Below, piece by piece: positions 1,578 to 14,421 of a stretch of 16,729 nt of DNA. The stretch lies in assembly GCA_038257035.1 (NCBI GenBank), contig JBBSJT010000050.1, forward strand, positions 1 through 16,729. Reading direction: 5' to 3'. Both the position numbers and the translations under genes were made by a program. How positions within the stretch are numbered: position 1 is the first letter of the stretch; each line of letters begins with the position of its first letter. The notes beneath the pieces were generated by a model that saw only the letters and a list, made by a program, of their open reading frames with translations, did not search any database and was not told the origin of the DNA. Source of the DNA: Chlamydiia bacterium (GTDB lineage: Bacteria > Chlamydiota > Chlamydiia > Chlamydiales > Parachlamydiaceae).

Positions 1578-2537
1578 ATGAAAATTCTTAAAATTTCCAC
1601 TCTATTTGCTTTAGCGCTAATCATCAGCGGATGTGAAAAAACAAATTATGGCCCGATCGTTGAGGAAACTTATGTTCATCGATATGGTGTTGAAGTTCCG
1701 GCACAAGATTGGGCGGTCAAAGGACAATCCGGTAAAGTAATTACTACACTAAAAAATGGTGTTGTTTGTACGAAAAACGTTTCTAGCGGTATTTTGGAGG
1801 GGGAGACATCCTACACTTTTCCTTACTCCGAAACTGTACAAAAGGTGGAAAGCTACCAAAATGGAAACCTTGAAAAGATGATGGTCTATTACCGTTCAGG
1901 AAAACCTGCTCAAGAAGTCATTTTTAATGGGCAAACCCGCCACGTTACTAAGTGGTACGAAAATGGGGCTCCGCAATCAAAAGAAGAAATTGAAAATGAT
2001 AAATTAGTCACTGCCCACTATTACAGCCCTAAAAATCATTTAGAAGCCCAAGTAATTTTCGGAAATGGAAACCGCATCCAACGCGATGTTTATGGCCAAA
2101 GTCTTTCTGTTGACACAATTCAGGATGGTGAGATGGTTCTTTGTGCGACAACGCATTCAAACGGTGCTCCAAAAGATTTGATTCCTTATAAAAACCGCGT
2201 TATTGAAGGGGAGTTAAGAACCTATCTTCCAGCCGGAGAGCCCAATACCATTGAAATGTGGTATGATGGTCAAAAAGAAGGTATTACGGTCACTTTTTTA
2301 AACGGTGAGAAATATGCAGAAATTCCTTACGTTTCAGGGCTTAAGCATGGAATCGAAAAACGTTTTAAAGATGGAAGACAAATCATCGAAGAGCTTACAT
2401 GGAATAACGACAAACGCCATGGCCCATCTTACTCTTATATCGGTGATAACAAAAGAACAGATTGGTATTTTCAGGACCGCTTAGTCACAGAAAAGACATT
2501 CGATCTTCTTGATCACGGCAGAACACCCAAAGCTTAG
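1578..2537 (+). CDS. Lipoprotein with MORN-variant (YwqK-like) beta repeats
   Basis: Signal peptide with lipobox IISG-C19. Repeated YYxSG/WYENG/Y..G.K.G units typical of MORN-variant repeats. RBS GAGGA upstream. Confidence 0.8.
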   Translation: MKILKISTLFALALIISGCEKTNYGPIVEETYVHRYGVEVPAQDWAVKGQSGKVITTLKNGVVCTKNVSSGILEGETSYTFPYSETVQKVESYQNGNLEKMMVYYRSGKPAQEVIFNGQTRHVTKWYENGAPQSKEEIENDKLVTAHYYSPKNHLEAQVIFGNGNRIQRDVYGQSLSVDTIQDGEMVLCATTHSNGAPKDLIPYKNRVIEGELRTYLPAGEPNTIEMWYDGQKEGITVTFLNGEKYAEIPYVSGLKHGIEKRFKDGRQIIEELTWNNDKRHGPSYSYIGDNKRTDWYFQDRLVTEKTFDLLDHGRTPKA

Positions 2538-4700: not shown

Positions 4701-4979
4701 TTATTCAATCTCAATGCTGCCATTAATCGCACACTGACAGGCAAGACGGTAAGCCCCCGGAGGGCATCCTTTTTGTTTAAGAGTGCTTTCCTCATTTGAA
4801 CACATTTTTGTCAGGTTTTCGTTTCCTGAAAGAACGTGAATAACACACACACCACATTTTCCTCGTGTACAACCAAATTTGAGTGGCATTTCAGGATTTT
4901 GCTTTTTTGCTTGAAGAAGTTCAATGCCTTCCGAGACTGTAAAAGTCTGATTTTTTGTTTTGAAGGTTATTTGAGGCAT
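4701..4979 (-). CDS. 2Fe-2S ferredoxin
   Basis: FGCTRGKCGVC (C-X4-C-X2-C) plus RLACQC. Overlaps the end of the upstream gene by 13 nt. Confidence 0.92.
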   Translation of the reverse strand: MPQITFKTKNQTFTVSEGIELLQAKKQNPEMPLKFGCTRGKCGVCVIHVLSGNENLTKMCSNEESTLKQKGCPPGAYRLACQCAINGSIEIE

Positions 4980-5527
4980 AATTCAACCTTTTTAAAGTCT
5001 TGCATATTCCATTCTGTTTCAATTAGGTCTGTAAATTCTCTTAAAGTTTCATCAAATGCATACTTCTTAAACACAATGGGGTGGTTGTTTTGATCAAATA
5101 AAATGACTCCGTCAAATGGATCACCATAGATTTTATAATACATCCGCTGCCTGGAAATAGGAATATTATGAAAAGAGGCAACATGACATTCGGTGCAAAG
5201 ATCATTTTTAAAAAAATAGGTTTCTTTAAAAACCAACCGATCATCTTGATCGCTTAAAAAGCAGATAACTTTTTCAGGCGTTTCGCTAATGGTCTCTTTT
5301 TTCCAAGCACGATGGTCTTCATTTTTCAAATGCCTAAAGTTTAAAAAGGCAGAATCGTATACAATGCTTTCAAAACAATTTTTAGCATATTTTTCAATGC
5401 TTATGTGCTTTCTGTAAGGGTCCATCACAATTTTGTAGGTTTCATTTTCGTTTACCGGTTCCTCAATCTGCCCTATTCCATAGGGGATACCCTCTTTCCA
5501 AAAATAATCTCGATAATGTTTTGTCAC
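4967..5527 (-). CDS. Hypothetical protein, probably co-translated with the ferredoxin
   Basis: 186-aa ORF with GTG start and AGGAG RBS on the minus strand. Aromatic, beta-strand-like composition. No function recognised. Confidence 0.75.
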   Translation of the reverse strand: MTKHYRDYFWKEGIPYGIGQIEEPVNENETYKIVMDPYRKHISIEKYAKNCFESIVYDSAFLNFRHLKNEDHRAWKKETISETPEKVICFLSDQDDRLVFKETYFFKNDLCTECHVASFHNIPISRQRMYYKIYGDPFDGVILFDQNNHPIVFKKYAFDETLREFTDLIETEWNMQDFKKVELCLK

Positions 5528-5584: not shown

Positions 5585-5601
5585 TTGGCACGGGCTTCGC
5601 A
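5585..5601 (+). promoter_or_regulatory. Sigma-54 (-24/-12) promoter of small protein copy 1
   Basis: TTGGCACGGGCTTCGCA: GG 5587-5588, N10, GC 5599-5600. One mismatch to TGGCACG-N4-TTGC. Confidence 0.75.
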
Positions 5602-5648
5602 TCTACCTAACTATATGAAACAAACGACCGTTAGGATGAGGGGGATAT

Positions 5649-5846
5649 ATGACTAAAAAAGAACTAATGAAACAAATAGCGGGTTTAGAGTCAATTAACG
5701 ATCAACTTATTACAGAACTTCAAATGGTAGATCAACTGATGCGTGATGTGGGCTTCTCAAACGGTTTAGAAACTATTAAGGCTACAGCTCTAGAACTACA
5801 AAATAACCCTGAAGCCTATATGGAGATGGAAGAAGATGAGTCATAA
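5649..5846 (+). CDS. Small helical protein, paralog 1 (LE-x-INDQL...GF-x-x-GLETIK family)
   Basis: 65-aa ORF with RBS GAGGGG, an upstream sigma-54 motif and two paralogs nearby. From memory it resembles the small chlamydial CT652.1/CPn0725-type protein (unverified). Confidence 0.88.
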   Translation: MTKKELMKQIAGLESINDQLITELQMVDQLMRDVGFSNGLETIKATALELQNNPEAYMEMEEDES

Positions 5847-5854
5847 ATCTCTTG

Positions 5855-5871
5855 TTGGCACGCTTTTTGCA
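5855..5871 (+). promoter_or_regulatory. Sigma-54 promoter pointing into non-coding DNA (sRNA copy 1)
   Basis: TTGGCACGCTTTTTGCA is a full match to TGGCACG-N4-TTGC(A/T), 8 nt after the stop of paralog 1. Predicted +1 near 5882. Confidence 0.85.
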
Positions 5872-5881
5872 ACAATATAAA

Positions 5882-6049
5882 TATATTTGACCCCGAGTTT
5901 CTTGTCGGCCTAAGGCCTTACAATACACACGGGGCTGACAACTGTTGACCCCTGCCCGGGGTAATAACAGTTACGGTAACAACTTTGATACTCCTTGTTT
6001 GGTTACCCGGCTAGATGAACCTTAAAAACTTCATCAGCTCGGGTTTTTT
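5882..6049 (+). ncRNA. Candidate sigma-54-dependent small RNA, long form (~168 nt)
   Basis: Bounded by a consensus sigma-54 promoter and an intrinsic terminator. GC-rich relative to its surroundings, four hairpins foldable by eye, no credible ORF. Confidence 0.65.
6005..6049 (+). terminator. Intrinsic terminator, copy 1
   Basis: ACCCG-GCT-A-GATGAA...TTCATC-AGCTCGGGT followed by a T run (6044-6049). Confidence 0.8.
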
Positions 6050-6102
6050 ATTGCAAGGGTGTGTACAGCCATTTTATAAATCTGCAAATCCCACATTTTT
6101 CG

Positions 6103-6455
6103 CTGACTAAGGAAGAGCTAATGAAACAAATAGCAGGAGTATATCATCTCGTTTAAATTGGTAGTTAATATGCTTGTATTTTGCCTCTAGTTTAAGAATT
6201 AAATTTCAATACCATACATTTTTGTAGGATTGAAATTTAATTCTTAAAATAGAGGTGAAAGACAAGTATAGTATCTATCAATTAAAACGATATGATGTAC
6301 AAGAGTCAATTAACGATCAACTTATCACAGAACTTCAAATGGTAGACCAACTCATGCGCGATGTAGGCTTCTCAAATGGTTTAGAGACAATTAAAGCAAC
6401 AGCCCAAGAACTACAGAATAATCCTGAAGCCTATATGGAAGAAGATGAGTCATAA
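6103..6455 (+). pseudogene. Small protein paralog 2, interrupted by a palindromic insertion
   Basis: 6103-6138 encodes (L)TKEELMKQIAG, with CTG in place of ATG. 6303-6455 encodes ESINDQ...EEDES* in another frame. There is an in-frame stop at 6154-6156 inside the insert. ORF 6255-6455 is an insert/gene chimera. Confidence 0.75.
6139..6300. mobile_element. 162-bp imperfect palindromic element (MITE- or RPE-like)
   Basis: 72-bp arms 6139-6210 and 6229-6300 match as inverted repeats at 61/72. Absent from the equivalent position of paralogs 1 and 3. Confidence 0.8.
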
Positions 6456-6463
6456 ATCTCTTG

Positions 6464-6480
6464 TTGGCACGCTTTTCGCA
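6464..6480 (+). promoter_or_regulatory. Sigma-54 promoter (sRNA copy 2)
   Basis: TTGGCACGCTTTTCGCA: GG 6466-6467, N10, GC 6478-6479. Predicted +1 near 6491. Confidence 0.75.
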
Positions 6481-6490
6481 ACAATATAAA

Positions 6491-6561
6491 TATATTTGAT
6501 ACTCCTTGTTTGGTTACCCGAGCTAGATGAACCTTAAAAAATTCATCAGCTCGGGTTTTTT
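6491..6561 (+). ncRNA. Candidate sigma-54-dependent small RNA, short form (~70 nt)
   Basis: Same promoter and 3' module as copy 1, but lacks the segment equivalent to 5891-5988. Confidence 0.5.
6516..6561 (+). terminator. Intrinsic terminator, copy 2
   Basis: ACCCGAGCT-A-GATGAA...TTCATC-AGCTCGGGT followed by a T run. Confidence 0.85.
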
Positions 6562-6658
6562 ATTGCCGCACAAATTTATGCAAAATTAAATTTTTCTTAA
6601 TCCAACGTTAACAACAATCCGTTTTAATTGAGGGCATAACAAGACAAAGAGGTGTAAA

Positions 6659-6826
6659 ATGACGAAAGCCCAATTATTAAAAAAGATAGCTTACCTTGAA
6701 TTCATCAATGATCAACTTGATATGGAAGTCCAATATGTGGACCAGCTCATGAGAATGGTCGGATTTGCACACGGTTTGGAAACAATAAAGCAAACAGCAG
6801 TTGAAATTATCAAGCTTGAAAAGTAG
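6659..6826 (+). CDS. Small helical protein, paralog 3 (55 aa, not in the ORF track)
   Basis: MTKAQLLKKIAYLEFINDQLDMEVQYVDQLMRMVGFAHGLETIKQTAVEIIKLEK*. RBS AGAGG at 6648-6652. Aligns without gaps to paralog 1. Confidence 0.9.
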   Translation: MTKAQLLKKIAYLEFINDQLDMEVQYVDQLMRMVGFAHGLETIKQTAVEIIKLEK

Positions 6827-6916: not shown

Positions 6917-8128
6917 TTACTTGGTTGTTAGTTTTTCGATTAAGCTATCTGCAAACCATTGATGTTTCTTGTTGATTTCCCCATGTGGGCAAAATAATTC
7001 TAGCTCTTTGCAGTGATAAAGGAAAAACAAATGAGATTTAAAGGGGCTTTTAAACCGGTAGATTTCACATAATTCCTGTAACAAGTTTTTGGTTTTAGAA
7101 AGACAATCCTCATAAGAAGAATCGGTCATATATAAAATAAAATCTTTAAAATACTTATGTAAAACAACAGAGCATCCCTCTTCTGAGGTGTTAAGTGTTG
7201 ATAATCCGGAATTAAAGGGAAGATGAAAAAATTCTTCGAAAACATGTATTAAAGGTTCCAATTTTTTAAGTTCGTCTTCTGTTAAAGAAGATAAAAGTTC
7301 TACTTTACATTCTAAAAGAGTATAATCTGCTCCCATTAAAATAATTTCTTTAAAATTCATTAAATTCAAGGCAATGCCTTGTAGAGTTCCTTCGCTTAAA
7401 AGTTCAAAAAAAGAAATAAAAGAATGATATATTTTAATCTCATCAGATTTTTGGGCAAGAATGTTGCATTTAAGAACATCTGAAATGGAAAATTCTGAAA
7501 GGTAAATTTTAAATTCCTTGCCTGCTTCAATACAAGCCTTTTCACATAAATCTAAAACGTTGAATTCATGATTTTTTGATTCTGTAAGACATGATTCAAG
7601 AGTTGTTTGAAAAAATTTACGGTTATATTTCATGAAAGCATTAAAACTGCTGTCTTGGAATATCCCATACTTATCTTGGATCGCATGATGTGCAGCGACA
7701 TTAATTTTATGGAACATCAATTTTTTAGGGCCGGTAAACTCAATAGCAAACCATTTTGTTCCTATGGTGTCATAGATACAATTTTTAGCAACAGATAGAA
7801 CTTTAGGAAATATTTCATTTAAATGAAAACATTGGTTAGAAAAAGAATGATTTAAAAGATAAAATTGCTGACAGACTTTTGGTAGAATTGACAACCTTGT
7901 TTTTGGGTCTATTGATTCAAAAATATGCAAATTGATTTCATCAGGAAGTACAAGTTGATTTGATTTTGTATTGAAAATAATTTTCTCAAGGTCTTCAATT
8001 TTTTTATTGGGGTGAGGAAATTCTGGCAAGTTTTTTGTAGGAAATTCTTCAGCTATGCTACTTGAAGATGCGTATCCCGTTAAATAGGAATAGATTTTAT
8101 AAGTGTCTATGTTACGATCATTATTCAT
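6917..8128 (-). CDS. F-box-like domain protein, putative effector
   Basis: LPDEINLHIFESIDPKTRLSILPKVCQQFYLL (from aa 61) fits the F-box pattern LP.E....IF..L....L....VC..(W/F). The remainder is unrecognised and probably helical. Confidence 0.75.
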   Translation of the reverse strand: MNNDRNIDTYKIYSYLTGYASSSSIAEEFPTKNLPEFPHPNKKIEDLEKIIFNTKSNQLVLPDEINLHIFESIDPKTRLSILPKVCQQFYLLNHSFSNQCFHLNEIFPKVLSVAKNCIYDTIGTKWFAIEFTGPKKLMFHKINVAAHHAIQDKYGIFQDSSFNAFMKYNRKFFQTTLESCLTESKNHEFNVLDLCEKACIEAGKEFKIYLSEFSISDVLKCNILAQKSDEIKIYHSFISFFELLSEGTLQGIALNLMNFKEIILMGADYTLLECKVELLSSLTEDELKKLEPLIHVFEEFFHLPFNSGLSTLNTSEEGCSVVLHKYFKDFILYMTDSSYEDCLSKTKNLLQELCEIYRFKSPFKSHLFFLYHCKELELFCPHGEINKKHQWFADSLIEKLTTK

Positions 8129-8147: not shown

Positions 8148-10832
8148 CTATGATAACAAAAATCTAAAGTCATCTTCACTTAAAGCAAGGTCGGCAAGAG
8201 CATCCTCAAAAAGAAGAGAGCCCATTTTTTCTTTATTTTGCTTTATTGTCATCATTTTTTCTTCAATTGTTTCGGCCATAATGTACCGCTTTGCTAATAC
8301 GGTATCTTTTCTTCCAATGCGATGCGCACGGTTGATTGCTTGATTTTCTATTGAATCATTCCACCAAGGATCAAACAAAAAAACATAATCAGCGGCTGTT
8401 AAATTTAGACCAACACCACCGGCTTTTAAGCTGATTAAAAATAAAGGGATACTTGGGTCTTCTTGAAATTGAGTGACCACTTTTTCACGATCTGTTGTGC
8501 TGCCATCGAGGTAGACGTAAGAAAAACTTTTTTCTTTTACAGCTTTTGCAATCAATTTTAACATCCCTGTAAATTGACTGTAGACAAGAATTTTTCTGCC
8601 CTCGGATACGGCAGTTTCAATATCTTCCATCAGGGCCTCAAGCTTTGCGCTTGAAATTTTAACTTCCGTTTCAACTTGTGAAGCTACCAAAATAGGATCG
8701 CAGCAAATTTGACGCAATCTTAAAATAGCCTCTAAAATCTCCATGCGATGTTTGGATATGCCGTCGATGTCGATTTTTTTAATAAGGGAGCCTTTAATGC
8801 CTTTTAAATAATCATCATAAATTTTTCTTTGATCAGATTCCATTTCAACAAAAACTGTTTGTTCGATTTTTTCAGGTAAATCCTTTGCCACATCTTCTTT
8901 TTTTCGTCGTAAAACAAAAGCCCTAATTTTGGATTTGATCTTTTGCAAATATCTGCTATCGGAGCTTGCAGCTTGTAGATCCGCTAAAAAATCTGTTTCT
9001 TTCCCAAGAAGATTGGGCATTAAAAAGCGGAAATGAGACCAAAGCTCTTTTAGATGGTTTTCTATGGGCGTACCTGTCATTGAAAGGCGGAAATTACTTT
9101 TTAGGGCAAAAACAGCCTTTGCAATTTGTGTGTGCGCATTTTTTATGGTTTGCGCCTCATCTAAAATCAGACATTCAAAGTTTAATTGTCTAAAAATACC
9201 TAAGTCCATGCGAAGAGTCGCGTAGGTTGTCAAAATAATATTTGCGTTTGGATTTAAAATTTGTCCTCTTTTAATTCCATGATGGATTAAGACATTAAAG
9301 TGTGGCGTAAAGCGTTTGATTTCCAAATGCCAATTAAAAACTAGGGAAGATGGCAGTATAATCAAAATTGGACGTTCCGTTTTTATTAACGAAAGAAAAG
9401 CTAAAACTTGTACGGTTTTTCCAAGTCCCATATCGTCTGCAAGCATTCCTGAAAATTTAAAATCATACAAGAATTTAAGAAAATTAACACCCTCTTCCTG
9501 ATAAGGCCTTAAAATACCCTTAAAAAGCGGAAATTGCTTAATTGGGCTTTTAAGTTGTTGCATCATTTCTTTTAGTGGCAAATCAAGTTTTACAAATTTT
9601 TCTTCCAACAATTCTTCGATTGATCCAAATTGGTGCCGTTTAATTGTGACTTTGTCGGTGACAACCTCTGCAATTTCCAATAAATTTTCAAAATCTTTAT
9701 TTTCAAAGGTGTCAGGAAATAAGCCTACATGATGTTCAGAAATTTCGATGAAGCGATCTTTTCTGTTAAAAGCACCCACAACATTTCTTAAGTCGACTTT
9801 AAATGTGTCGTAATTTAAATTTCCTTTTACTTCAATGTCTGCAGTCTCACTTGTAAATTCAAGTTCAAATGTATCGTACTTCAAAACCTGTCGTCCTTTA
9901 AAATCCATTATTTTCCAGCCAATTTCCAAGATGAAATTCAAGCTTTTGGCAACGTTATCAAGCGGGCAATAGTAGTGTGAATTAACCATTGGTTTTACTA
10001 TGAAATCGGTTTCAAGTAAATCTTGTTCCAACGCTTTCTCATCATCACTGTTTCTTCTTGCAAAATCATGGTACAAATATTTTTTGTCCCCATCTTGAAT
10101 GTAAAGATCTGCAAAAGCCCCGGTTCTATCTTTTAAAACCAAAATGGGCATCAAAGTTTTTTGTTGTTCTATTGCAAAATGGGATTGCTTTGAAAAATGG
10201 ACTTTTGGCTCATTGTTATCCTCATTGTATGCATCCTTTAAAGCATCAATTTCTTTTGATGTAAAGTCTCTGCGATTTCTGATTGCGTCAAGTTCCTTCC
10301 ATGTCACATCAGTCCCAATTATTTTTAAAATAATACCTTTAATAAACCAATGAGGAGGACCCTCTGATAGAAAATCGCAATCTTGAATAAGAATTTCGTT
10401 TTCACCCCATTTTAATTTTCCCAAAAGTTTAAGTTGATTGGGTTGTTCTGATTCAACGTAGTAAGCAAAATCAGCTTTACTATAAAAATCGCAGGCCAGT
10501 TGTTTTTGATTAAAATAGAGTTTACCGGTAGCTGCCATCAATTTTAAGGCTTGTACAGATTCCTTTGCTGATATATTAAGGATTTGAAGAGAAACATCTT
10601 CTTCTTTTATTAGTTGATTGGATTGTTTTTTTTGATACTTAATTTCTTCTTTAATTAAAAAATTAAGTGCTAGTTTGTCAAGAGCAGTCAATCCTTTTTC
10701 AATGCTTTTAAGAGAAAAAGTTCGAGTTTTATCATCAATTTTGAGATAATAACCCTCTCGGTCGGCAAGGGCAATCCTAATGACAAGCTTTTTTTTGGAG
10801 TCTTTATCGATAATATAGGTAATTTCTTTCAT
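8148..10832 (-). CDS. SNF2-family (SWI/SNF) helicase-like ATPase
   Basis: LRPYQ, LADDMGLGKT, ILDEAQ, MTGTPIEN, LRRKK, SLKAGGVGLNLTAAD, DPWWN and QAINRAHRIG motifs. Confidence 0.96.
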   Translation of the reverse strand: MKEITYIIDKDSKKKLVIRIALADREGYYLKIDDKTRTFSLKSIEKGLTALDKLALNFLIKEEIKYQKKQSNQLIKEEDVSLQILNISAKESVQALKLMAATGKLYFNQKQLACDFYSKADFAYYVESEQPNQLKLLGKLKWGENEILIQDCDFLSEGPPHWFIKGIILKIIGTDVTWKELDAIRNRRDFTSKEIDALKDAYNEDNNEPKVHFSKQSHFAIEQQKTLMPILVLKDRTGAFADLYIQDGDKKYLYHDFARRNSDDEKALEQDLLETDFIVKPMVNSHYYCPLDNVAKSLNFILEIGWKIMDFKGRQVLKYDTFELEFTSETADIEVKGNLNYDTFKVDLRNVVGAFNRKDRFIEISEHHVGLFPDTFENKDFENLLEIAEVVTDKVTIKRHQFGSIEELLEEKFVKLDLPLKEMMQQLKSPIKQFPLFKGILRPYQEEGVNFLKFLYDFKFSGMLADDMGLGKTVQVLAFLSLIKTERPILIILPSSLVFNWHLEIKRFTPHFNVLIHHGIKRGQILNPNANIILTTYATLRMDLGIFRQLNFECLILDEAQTIKNAHTQIAKAVFALKSNFRLSMTGTPIENHLKELWSHFRFLMPNLLGKETDFLADLQAASSDSRYLQKIKSKIRAFVLRRKKEDVAKDLPEKIEQTVFVEMESDQRKIYDDYLKGIKGSLIKKIDIDGISKHRMEILEAILRLRQICCDPILVASQVETEVKISSAKLEALMEDIETAVSEGRKILVYSQFTGMLKLIAKAVKEKSFSYVYLDGSTTDREKVVTQFQEDPSIPLFLISLKAGGVGLNLTAADYVFLFDPWWNDSIENQAINRAHRIGRKDTVLAKRYIMAETIEEKMMTIKQNKEKMGSLLFEDALADLALSEDDFRFLLS

Positions 10833-12786: not shown

Positions 12787-14421
12787 ATGGAGCCAAATAA
12801 AGGTATAGAAACAGGTAAGTTTTATGATGTTGTTGAAAATAACATCATAAAAACGAATACCCCAACGGATGAGCTTTCCACATTAAATAAAATTGAAAAA
12901 ATGGTCGATAAAGATCGCTTTTACTACAGTGAACCAAAAGTTGCCGAAAAGATATTAAATGTCATCAAAGAAATTAGACAAGAATATCAATCAAAAGCTT
13001 CTTGGTTTTATTCTTATATTTTCGATAATAAAAAGATGAAAGATATTGACGGAGTCTTTTGTAAAATTGAAAATAAAATTCTTGTACCTCCTCAAAAAGC
13101 ATTTCCTATTATTGTTCACGAAAATTCTTTAGAAATTTTAGATTTATTACCTATTAATAGTCTTCATGCTTTTTCTAGCGTTAACAGAGAAGGGAAAAAA
13201 AATGCAGACATTGCAATTATTACACGAGCAAAAGAAGCAGGTTTTAACAGCTCAAATAATGTGGAGGAAGCTCGTAAGTACCTAAATGATCTTTTTAATG
13301 ACATTGATCTTTTTTCCAAAAGCGAACTTGGAAAAAAATATATTGATCTTAAAAATGATGGAAAAATTGATTACGAAAATACATTGAATCATCTAAAAAA
13401 TATAACCACTGAAGATCTTTTTGAATTAGTTTCCATTTATGGATCCTTTGAAAATTTAAAAAATTGCATTCAGTTTCAAGAAAAAAATCGTCCTTTACCT
13501 GAAATTAAACCCCTGCTTAATCAAGAATTGACACTTAAAGGTATTGAAGCAGTTCACAGAGCTTCTTTTGATAAGTTTTTTCATTTAGCTGTCGATCTTA
13601 TTATCAAAAGAGGAGTACCTATTAATAGTGTTCTGAGGTATACAAGCCAAACTTTACTAGAACGGGCTGTGCAGGATAATAATAAAGAAATAGTTTTAAC
13701 TTTACTGAAAAACAACGCAGATACAGCAAACGGATTTTGTTATGTTCAATCTCTGGAATTAGCAAAAATTCTTTTGTCTTCCGGGGCTAAATTAGATGTT
13801 CTTAAACCTCTTGAAGACTCCTCTCCTTTATTTATAGCGATATGTAGAGATAAGATAGAAATCGTAAATTTCTTTTTCAATAATGGAGTAAATATCAATC
13901 CTAGTGAGCGTAAAAAGCTACTTGATTATATCGCTTCATTTGATATGGCCAAATTATTGTTAACTAATGGATTGAAAATAGAAAGGGAAGATCTAATTTC
14001 ATCGATCCATTCCGCAGAAATTGCAAAACTTTTTTTCGACAATGGGGCTGAAATTAACGCTACTAATATTAATGGTACGACACCTTTACATAAGGCTGTT
14101 GAGAATAAAAATTTAGAAGTTATTAAATTCCTCATAAAAAATGGAGCTGAAATCAACGCTGTTAGTAGCGAGGGAAACACGCCTTTTCATTACTTAACTA
14201 ATTCAGATTATAAAATTTATGAGGAACCCTCTGAAGAAATAAAAAAAATAGTTGATTTACTTTTTGAAAGTGGTGCTAAGGTGCTTGATAATAATAAAAG
14301 AGAGAATATTTTAAATTATTATGACATTAGATCAACTTCAAATTTTGCAAAGCCCTCGAAGCTAAATGCTTATATTATTAAAAAATATGAAGAATTGAAT
14401 GGAGAGGAAAGCTCCCTATAG
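12787..14421 (+). CDS. Ankyrin-repeat protein with a degenerate F-box-like segment, putative effector
   Basis: Clear ANK repeats (GTTPLHKAVENKNLEVIKFLIKNGAEINA, GNTPFH, SSPLFIAI, QTLLERAV). F-box-like segment at aa ~106-142. Confidence 0.9.
   Translation: MEPNKGIETGKFYDVVENNIIKTNTPTDELSTLNKIEKMVDKDRFYYSEPKVAEKILNVIKEIRQEYQSKASWFYSYIFDNKKMKDIDGVFCKIENKILVPPQKAFPIIVHENSLEILDLLPINSLHAFSSVNREGKKNADIAIITRAKEAGFNSSNNVEEARKYLNDLFNDIDLFSKSELGKKYIDLKNDGKIDYENTLNHLKNITTEDLFELVSIYGSFENLKNCIQFQEKNRPLPEIKPLLNQELTLKGIEAVHRASFDKFFHLAVDLIIKRGVPINSVLRYTSQTLLERAVQDNNKEIVLTLLKNNADTANGFCYVQSLELAKILLSSGAKLDVLKPLEDSSPLFIAICRDKIEIVNFFFNNGVNINPSERKKLLDYIASFDMAKLLLTNGLKIEREDLISSIHSAEIAKLFFDNGAEINATNINGTTPLHKAVENKNLEVIKFLIKNGAEINAVSSEGNTPFHYLTNSDYKIYEEPSEEIKKIVDLLFESGAKVLDNNKRENILNYYDIRSTSNFAKPSKLNAYIIKKYEELNGEESSL

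Follow-up and report, generated by a model that had tools for sequence, protein, structure and literature searches.

A candidate small RNA beside sigma-54 promoters at the Ctl0021/CT652.1-family locus of a soil chlamydia

The stretch of DNA analysed here (16,729 nt, contig JBBSJT010000050.1 of assembly GCA_038257035.1; in the following "the window") stems from a soil chlamydia of the amoeba-associated family Parachlamydiaceae and holds, between positions 5585 and 6826, a cluster of sigma-54 promoters, small-protein genes and predicted non-coding RNAs. This locus is probably the form that the core chlamydial sigma-54 target locus takes in Parachlamydiaceae, extended by a small RNA (sRNA). The protein, its sigma-54 control and its tandem arrays with one promoter per copy have already been described, as the portions of the publication drawn on here make clear (PMC12282069). 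The sRNA half is, judging from its sequence, a plausible member of the class of sigma-54-dependent sRNAs and, as far as we found, a new one for the phylum. In what follows the source genome is called G000 (2,366,241 bp in 210 contigs, 36% G+C, 95.8% complete; the window is its contig C50), both other genomes of the genus G001 and G002, and individual loci carry numbers of the form Lnnn.

The window has three matches to the motif TGGCAC-N5-TYGCA, at 5586, 5856 and 6465, always on the plus strand and all inside 900 bp; 0.01 occurrences are expected by chance in the whole window, and none of 200 shuffles gave three or more. This clustering, which a first-pass annotation of the DNA had pointed out as three -24/-12 motifs, is real and far beyond chance, and all three sites are canonical sigma-54 promoters with GG and GC elements in the exact spacing of TGGCAC-N5-TTGCW. 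In the entire genome the pattern TGGCAC-N5-T[CT]GC[AT] gave eight matches. Four of the five outside the window fall inside open reading frames (ORFs) of at least 80 aa and one is intergenic, so that the genome has four intergenic sigma-54 motifs, three of them within these 900 bp; two of these four intergenic promoters precede RNA predicted to be free of ORFs. Promoter 1 (TGGCACGGGCTTCGCA; 5586-5601, +), with a predicted start at about 5612, precedes gene 1, whose ATG follows after 48 nt, and in related soil contigs, among the matches listed, the differences at 5593-5595 concern the spacer and not the GG and GC elements. Promoter 2 (TGGCACGCTTTTTGCA; 5856-5871, +) is a perfect TGGCAC-N5-TTGCA match situated 9 nt past the stop codon of gene 1, with a predicted start at about 5882, and for promoter 3 (TGGCACGCTTTTCGCA; 6465-6480, +) the start is predicted at about 6491. 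The layout proposed in the first-pass annotation, i.e., promoter, 65-aa gene, promoter, RNA, terminator, broken gene copy, promoter, RNA, terminator and 55-aa paralog, proved correct.

Promoters 2 and 3 are each followed by a copy of the predicted sRNA. The uninterrupted copy, RNA_B (6491-6561, +, about 71 nt; covariance model E 1.9e-14), carries the seed CUCCUUGUUUGGUUA (6502-6516) in its single-stranded 5' part, followed by the stem of a terminator (6517-6555) and a U-run (6556-6561), and the region 6490-6566 folds at -22.7 kcal/mol (z -4.8). In its uninterrupted form the sRNA is predicted to measure about 71-75 nt and to consist of the unpaired 5' part AUAUAUUUGAUACUCCUUGUUUGGUUA, a 39-nt hairpin and U6. 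RNA_A (5882-6049, +, about 170 nt; covariance model E 2.9e-15), which is also the 3' untranslated region (3'UTR) of gene 1, has its seed at 5991-6005, its terminator stem at 6006-6043 and its U-run at 6044-6049. Both copies end in a long hairpin and U6; a scan of the window for consensus terminators returned no site, because the hairpin loops exceed the limit of 8 set in that scan. RNA_A agrees with RNA_B in the promoter, the first bases, the seed and the terminator and differs by 98 extra bases, and since these are a dispersed repeat, the locus holds one kind of RNA and not two. The promoters and terminators that had been assigned to two RNAs stand, but the division into a long and a short kind does not, the long one being the short one plus the repeat. 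The only ATG of RNA_B lies inside the hairpin, lacks a ribosome-binding site and is absent in G002; the predicted sRNA has its own promoter, an intrinsic terminator and no conserved reading frame. No Rfam family, Qrr included, was assigned to RNA_A or RNA_B in a scan of the whole window at E <= 1.

At the same locus the element was also found in both other genomes of the genus, and hence in all three. The copy in G002 has its own promoter (TGGCAT-N5-TTGCA) and precedes the one family gene, whose own sigma-54 promoter, the second there, lies between the sRNA terminator and the gene, while in G001 the element is placed directly 3' of the stop codon of a paralog. The three species have CUCCUU and UUUGGUUACC in common, with 0-2 additional U in between, and the seed is nearly invariant where the family proteins are 70-75% identical. 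The letters of the hairpin differ among the three genomes and its upper part is species-specific; all versions fold (-16 to -25 kcal/mol). With a covariance model derived from the four copies, these four alone were matched at E <= 1e-12 among 73 genomes of the family, and the sRNA was not found with it in the 70 other Parachlamydiaceae genomes. Five weak matches of the model in other genera (E 8e-4 to 0.06) were rejected, as they had neither the seed nor a sigma-54 motif. Matches to the seed pattern outside the genus, at 16 places in the 73 genomes compared to 36 for the reversed control, were dismissed as noise, and the 118 loci listed for this pattern in metagenome contigs all lacked a family gene as well as a sigma-54 motif in the nearest 60 nt. 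Contigs of two further soil runs carry promoter and sRNA in other orders, in one arrangement as two sRNA copies separated by 42 nt free of any gene remnant, in another as sRNA followed by promoter 1 and gene 1, like in G002. The suggestion that RNA and promoter would recur beside homologs in relatives holds for both other genomes of the genus (in G001 for the RNA without the promoter), but the element is confined to this one genus.

The small proteins were compared across the order. Gene 1 (5649-5846, +), recognised as an ORF and by homology, encodes 65 aa, and gene 3 (6659-6826, +; E 4.1e-15) a 55-aa paralog of the common type of the family, 64% identical to the gene 1 protein. Counting G000, 51 of the 61 genomes examined from the order gave homologs of gene 1 by tblastn (31 of the 36 other genomes of the same family and 19 of the 24 from other families of the order), and copies are often located within a few hundred bases of one another. 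Eight positions are invariant in an alignment of 42 sequences (L13, E14, E23, D28, G35, F36, G39 and K44), and the proteins, of about 55-70 aa, share the core LE(S/F)xNDQL..E..Y.D.L....GF..GL.T.K. The orthologs in Table S1 of PMC12282069 have the core LE(S/F)xNDQL...VGFxxGLxTxK in common with our 42 extracted sequences when compared by eye, and by this likeness the small proteins belong to the Ctl0021/CT652.1 family, which bears out the resemblance to CT652.1/CPn0725 noted in the first-pass annotation. The coordinates of the C. pneumoniae ortholog are those given for CPn0725 in an older paper (PMC3333780, as far as drawn on here). Of 30 related loci, 25 showed a strict sigma-54 motif no more than 130 nt before a family gene, mostly at 45-70 nt; two loci (L008, L011) have an ATGCA variant at the -12 element, and three (L007, L021, L028) had no sigma-54 motif upstream of the gene. 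Between the terminator of RNA_B and the ATG of gene 3 (6562-6658) no such motif was read either, so that a link of gene 3 to sigma-54 would need read-through. An orphan sigma-54 motif near family genes, seen in L023 only, was rejected as a 119-bp tandem duplication without terminator; at L023:548-690 (G031) the promoter and the start of the leader are duplicated, and two identical promoters precede the family gene.

The AlphaFold2 model of the gene 1 protein, computed with the 42 sequences (pLDDT 88), has helices at residues 3-33 and 40-52 and an acidic tail, and gave no structural match in the PDB at E <= 0.001. The protein has no Pfam or NCBIfam family, a protein atlas search returned unnamed Chlamydiota clusters only, and a search starting from a 10-sequence alignment of the family reached no true Chlamydia species. 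In C. trachomatis, chromatin immunoprecipitation sequencing (ChIP-seq) of sigma-54 gave only two bound sites, ctl0021 (= CT652.1) and ctl0052, both bound only late in the cycle, and ctl0021 is expressed late according to reverse-transcription quantitative PCR (PMC12282069, 2025). The same source, in the portions used, reports a sigma-54 promoter before every ctl0021 ortholog, and its Table S1 lists one Protochlamydia with four tandem ctl0021 copies at 248-bp spacing, each with its own promoter. The C. trachomatis protein was "possibly secreted" in one of three assays and its fusion to green fluorescent protein was nuclear (excerpts of PMC12671076). A ctl0052-type TPR gene behind a sigma-54 motif was not seen in G000, where no protein-level search was made for it.

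The present form of the locus is the outcome of a duplication and two insertions. The segments 5649-6054 and 6103-6566 are tandem duplicates of each other: gene, sigma-54 promoter, sRNA and terminator were copied together, after which the 98-nt repeat entered the first sRNA copy and a 162-bp element the second gene copy. The 98-nt repeat (5886-5983) lies between start and seed of RNA_A, with TTTGA on both sides, and is absent from RNA_B; in a related soil contig position 5885 is followed immediately by 5984, although the shorter side of this junction has only 26 letters. Partial copies of the repeat are present on seven other contigs of the genome (C14, C25, C1, C137, C65, C134 and C88) and on either strand, with 12 partial alignments at E <= 1e-4. 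This dispersed repeat, of about 60-100 nt, is richer in G+C and folds into two hairpins. Gene 2 (6103-6455, +; E 9.5e-26) is the broken duplicate of gene 1: it has CTG in the position of the start codon, no ribosome-binding site and an interruption after about 12 codons, while its 3' part (6301-6455) still has 96% protein identity to gene 1. The interruption is a dispersed 162-bp element with terminal inverted repeats (6139-6300) that resembles miniature inverted-repeat transposable elements (MITEs). It matches itself on the opposite strand, has no coding capacity and occurs in partial to near-full copies on six other contigs (C13, C5, C37, C24, C122 and C26), and soil contigs with other copies diverge exactly at 6138 and 6300. 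The "broken gene copy" of the first-pass annotation is accordingly a start-less duplicate of gene 1 with a MITE-like insertion. Taken together, the insertions and the loss of the start left one intact half in each duplicate, gene 1 in the first and the sRNA in the second. Rfam matches to plant microRNA hairpins were rejected as artefacts on the 162-bp element, far below the gathering scores; the scan gave one further, unrelated weak match.

Both components that sigma-54 promoters require, the sigma factor and an AAA+ activator, were found in G000, as the first-pass annotation had demanded. The rpoN gene is a 500-aa open frame with a Sigma54_DBD match (E 2.9e-53), and the sole strong Sigma54_activat match (E 5e-72) is in a 389-aa protein composed of Response_reg, Sigma54_activat and AAA_lid. 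This protein ends at the AAA lid and showed no helix-turn-helix or other DNA-binding domain at E <= 0.01. A histidine kinase is encoded directly before it (L227:13-2235, G000:C47), and the pair is CtcB/CtcC-like; CtcC of C. trachomatis is likewise not known to have a DNA-binding domain. Given such an activator, the promoters would need no upstream enhancer and could therefore follow a stop codon directly and be duplicated as compact units; this would account for promoters 2 and 3 working although everything upstream of them is coding sequence. A search of G000 for an Hfq domain found none, an absence that at 95.8% completeness is not proven.

A more specific, distinctly tentative proposal concerns the function of the locus. 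The CtcB/CtcC-sigma-54 signal, a mark of the late stage in Chlamydia, might feed two outputs of one compact module: the small protein, and a dedicated sRNA of the anti-Shine-Dalgarno type that would silence several mRNAs without Hfq, the CA-rich leaders of the protein family itself possibly among them. In the preferred reading the two-component system would activate sigma-54, upon which promoter 1 would give a gene 1 mRNA reaching up to the first terminator and promoters 2 and 3 would give the sRNA on its own. The unpaired 5' part (CUCCUU..UUUGGUUA) would then pair with the ribosome-binding regions of target mRNAs and repress them without Hfq, so adding a post-transcriptional arm to the sigma-54 signal. 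Unpaired CUCCUU resembles the anti-Shine-Dalgarno end of 16S rRNA, and the sRNA probably functions by anti-Shine-Dalgarno repression. The leaders of the Ctl0021 family are CA-rich before the Shine-Dalgarno sequence. By analogy to C. trachomatis, a role in the conversion of reticulate bodies to elementary bodies may be envisaged. The two best duplexes of the sRNA, at -27.3 kcal/mol each (mean -11.4, sd 3.0, over 9,914 start windows), are formed with the ribosome-binding site of a cytochrome-oxidase-subunit-III-like gene and with an HPr-like gene, both named by eye.

Several observations weigh against an added regulatory RNA. Complements of the seed are not enriched in the genome, with 97 matches at up to three mismatches as opposed to 98 for the reversed control, and 10 (both sRNA copies included) as opposed to 9 at up to two. 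The cytochrome-oxidase-like site was rejected as a target, being conserved in neither G001 nor G002, and the HPr-like site is kept in G002 only. There is no sigma-54 motif before the element in G001, which may there be just the 3'UTR and terminator of a sigma-54 transcript. The sRNA is known from the sequence of three uncultured genomes alone, with predicted transcript starts and ends; among the sequencing runs listed for the stretch, none is of RNA. One of six consensus pairs shows a compensatory change, in a sample of three species, with two of the four copies being recent duplicates, that is too small for covariation statistics. Finally, the decay of a tandem gene array would likewise leave a promoter directly after a stop codon.

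The last point leads to the strongest of the rival explanations, which we nevertheless consider unlikely, namely that the RNA is a relic without a function of its own, that the promoters behind the stop codons are left over from a tandem array, that the element is the 3'UTR and terminator of the preceding gene and that any short transcripts are by-products. Arrays with one promoter per copy are common (L026, L027 and the four copies of PMC12282069 Table S1), and in the array of L027 the promoter of the next copy overlaps the preceding stop codon, which makes a promoter right behind a stop codon a normal feature of the family. The promoterless element behind a gene in G001, the tolerance of a 98-nt insertion in one sRNA copy and the lack of signal in the target search would all be in line with such a remnant. 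In G002, however, the element stands alone upstream of the sole gene copy, with its own promoter and followed by the second promoter, that of the gene, and is therefore not the 3'UTR of that gene. A bare terminator would need the hairpin only, yet it is the hairpin that has changed, while the unpaired 5' part is kept near letter for letter in three species, and no trace of coding sequence is left between promoter and terminator.

It is improbable that promoter, short RNA and terminator instead serve the gene behind them (gene 3 here, the only family gene in G002) as a regulated 5' leader, in which read-through would set expression and CUCCUU could mask the downstream Shine-Dalgarno sequence. 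The element does lie upstream of the gene also in G002, but the full sigma-54 promoter between terminator and gene makes read-through unneeded there. RNA_B and gene 3 stay adjacent in related soil contigs and the sigma-54 motif nearest to gene 3, that of promoter 3, lies 194 nt before it on the far side of the terminator; RNA_A, however, is followed by a dead gene, and the element of G001 lies downstream of its gene, with a repeat element and a promoter separating it from the next one. An antiterminator fold was not seen in the minimum-energy structures.

That the sRNA mainly targets the mRNAs of the Ctl0021 family through their CA-rich ribosome-binding regions, in a feedback loop, is very improbable. 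The leader of the family gene of another genus has a perfect complement to the seed core at its ribosome-binding site (UAACCAAAGGAG, L030:1656-1690 in G016, minus-strand gene), but that genus has no detectable sRNA. The seed pairs better with 42 family 5'UTRs than with 655 Shine-Dalgarno-bearing starts of G000 (mean -13.3 vs. -10.9 kcal/mol; Mann-Whitney p 4e-6, which overstates the case because the 42 UTRs are related to one another), as does the half of the seed outside the anti-Shine-Dalgarno part, but this class effect may reflect base composition. The ribosome-binding site of gene 3 matches 12 of 15 positions of the seed complement, yet among the Shine-Dalgarno-bearing starts of G000 the pairing of the family genes does not stand out, gene 1 ranking within the top 12% and gene 3 within the top 38%, and the cognate-gene duplexes of G001 are weak (-7.5 and -13.3 kcal/mol).

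An sRNA added to the sigma-54 target locus, the reading we prefer, can be set beside several known systems. Sigma-54-dependent sRNAs are well known in Proteobacteria, e.g., Qrr and GlmY/GlmZ, and the Qrr RNAs need Hfq. Qrr1-5 of Vibrio are multi-copy sRNAs dependent on sigma-54 and LuxO (10.1101/2021.07.01.450815, as excerpted). They share with the chlamydial element a short length, sigma-54 promoters, multiple copies, a conserved unpaired region with a terminator and a response-regulator activator, but there is no relation in sequence or Rfam family, no Hfq was found in G000 and its two copies are a very recent duplicate of which one is interrupted. Campylobacter jejuni reportedly encodes an RpoN-dependent sRNA behind a sigma-54-dependent flagellar gene, similarly at the 3' end of a sigma-54-controlled gene and yielding a protein and a riboregulator from one signal, though in another phylum and in a flagellar regulon. 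DapZ and MicL of enterobacteria are 3'UTR-derived sRNAs with an internal promoter. They compare well with RNA_A and RNA_B, which share the terminator of the preceding gene and have their promoter just past its stop codon, and with the plain 3'UTR of G001; unlike them, the promoter here is of the sigma-54 and not the sigma-70 or sigma-E type, no Hfq was found, and the RNA of G002 is free of any gene.

Also comparable is the Chlamydia sigma-54 regulon itself (ctl0021 and ctl0052), which has the same protein family, a canonical promoter about 50 nt before the start codon, the same sigma factor and two-component activator, and tandem promoter-bearing copies in a Protochlamydia (PMC12282069). That paper has no non-coding RNA, and the terms "sRNA" and "small RNA" appear nowhere in it, whereas in G000 two of the four intergenic sigma-54 promoters precede a predicted RNA free of ORFs. 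The sole earlier suggestion of sigma-54-type promoters before chlamydial sRNA candidates that we found concerns pCpn56 and pCpn57 of C. pneumoniae, which have only a minimal GG-N9-11-GC motif; they lie inside genes (antisense to CPn0612 and sense to CPn0657, respectively), show low read counts and have no connection with the CPn0725 locus (PMC3333780, in the portions used). A description of a sigma-54-driven RNA beside ctl0021 was not found among the papers listed in the literature searches. The first-pass annotation had not recognised the locus as a described system, which remains true for the RNA half as far as we found but not for the protein half, already published in PMC12282069.

The functions of both genes of the sigma-54 regulon, two by ChIP-seq, are given as unknown in the consulted portions of PMC12282069, and the locus bears on the question of how so small a regulon could influence the late developmental switch. 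If the prediction is true, a regulatory RNA would extend the reach of the sigma-54 regulon via post-transcriptional control, and the size of the regulon as counted from protein-coding genes would be an underestimate. The element would then be the first sigma-54-dependent riboregulator in Chlamydiota and would imply that a very small sigma-54 regulon can grow by RNA genes, aided by an enhancer-independent activator.

Outside the window the genome has a single further intergenic sigma-54 motif (TGGCACACCTCTTGCA; G000:C1:13180, L233:81-96), which precedes a 74-aa lysine/alanine-rich protein (ORF L054:233-454) without Pfam family. G069, of another genus, has a near-identical promoter directly after a stop codon and before a similar lysine-rich small protein (L235), and this protein may represent a second conserved sigma-54 target in the family. 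Another intergenic motif (TGGCACGCTTCTCGCA; L237:1501-1516, G093:C1:784290-784305) is the same 16-mer that is entered as "no CDS" in Table S1 of PMC12282069, as far as that table was drawn on. The 164-nt stretch downstream of it, up to about 1690, folds at -55.9 kcal/mol (z -5.7), includes a candidate ORF of 40 aa and runs antisense to the end of a small Q/K-rich gene, which it overlaps; in a DNA search of four related genomes only its last 50 nt were matched. As this 16-mer is followed by a strongly structured predicted transcript, the idea of sigma-54-driven RNAs is testable in cultured amoeba symbionts.

A 186-aa gene without family assignment (4967-5527, -) runs divergently from promoter 1, and all three genomes of the genus keep it as the neighbour on the left of the locus (blastn: 74% across about 125 nt). 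The right neighbour in G001 and G002 is an SNF2-type helicase gene, found in the window at 8148-10832; in G000 an additional gene with a weak F-box-like match (6917-8128) separates it from the locus. Eukaryote-like repeat proteins are usual in amoeba-associated chlamydiae, and the window encodes a protein with a weak MORN-repeat match at 1578-2537 (+) and an ankyrin-repeat protein at 12787-14421 (+).

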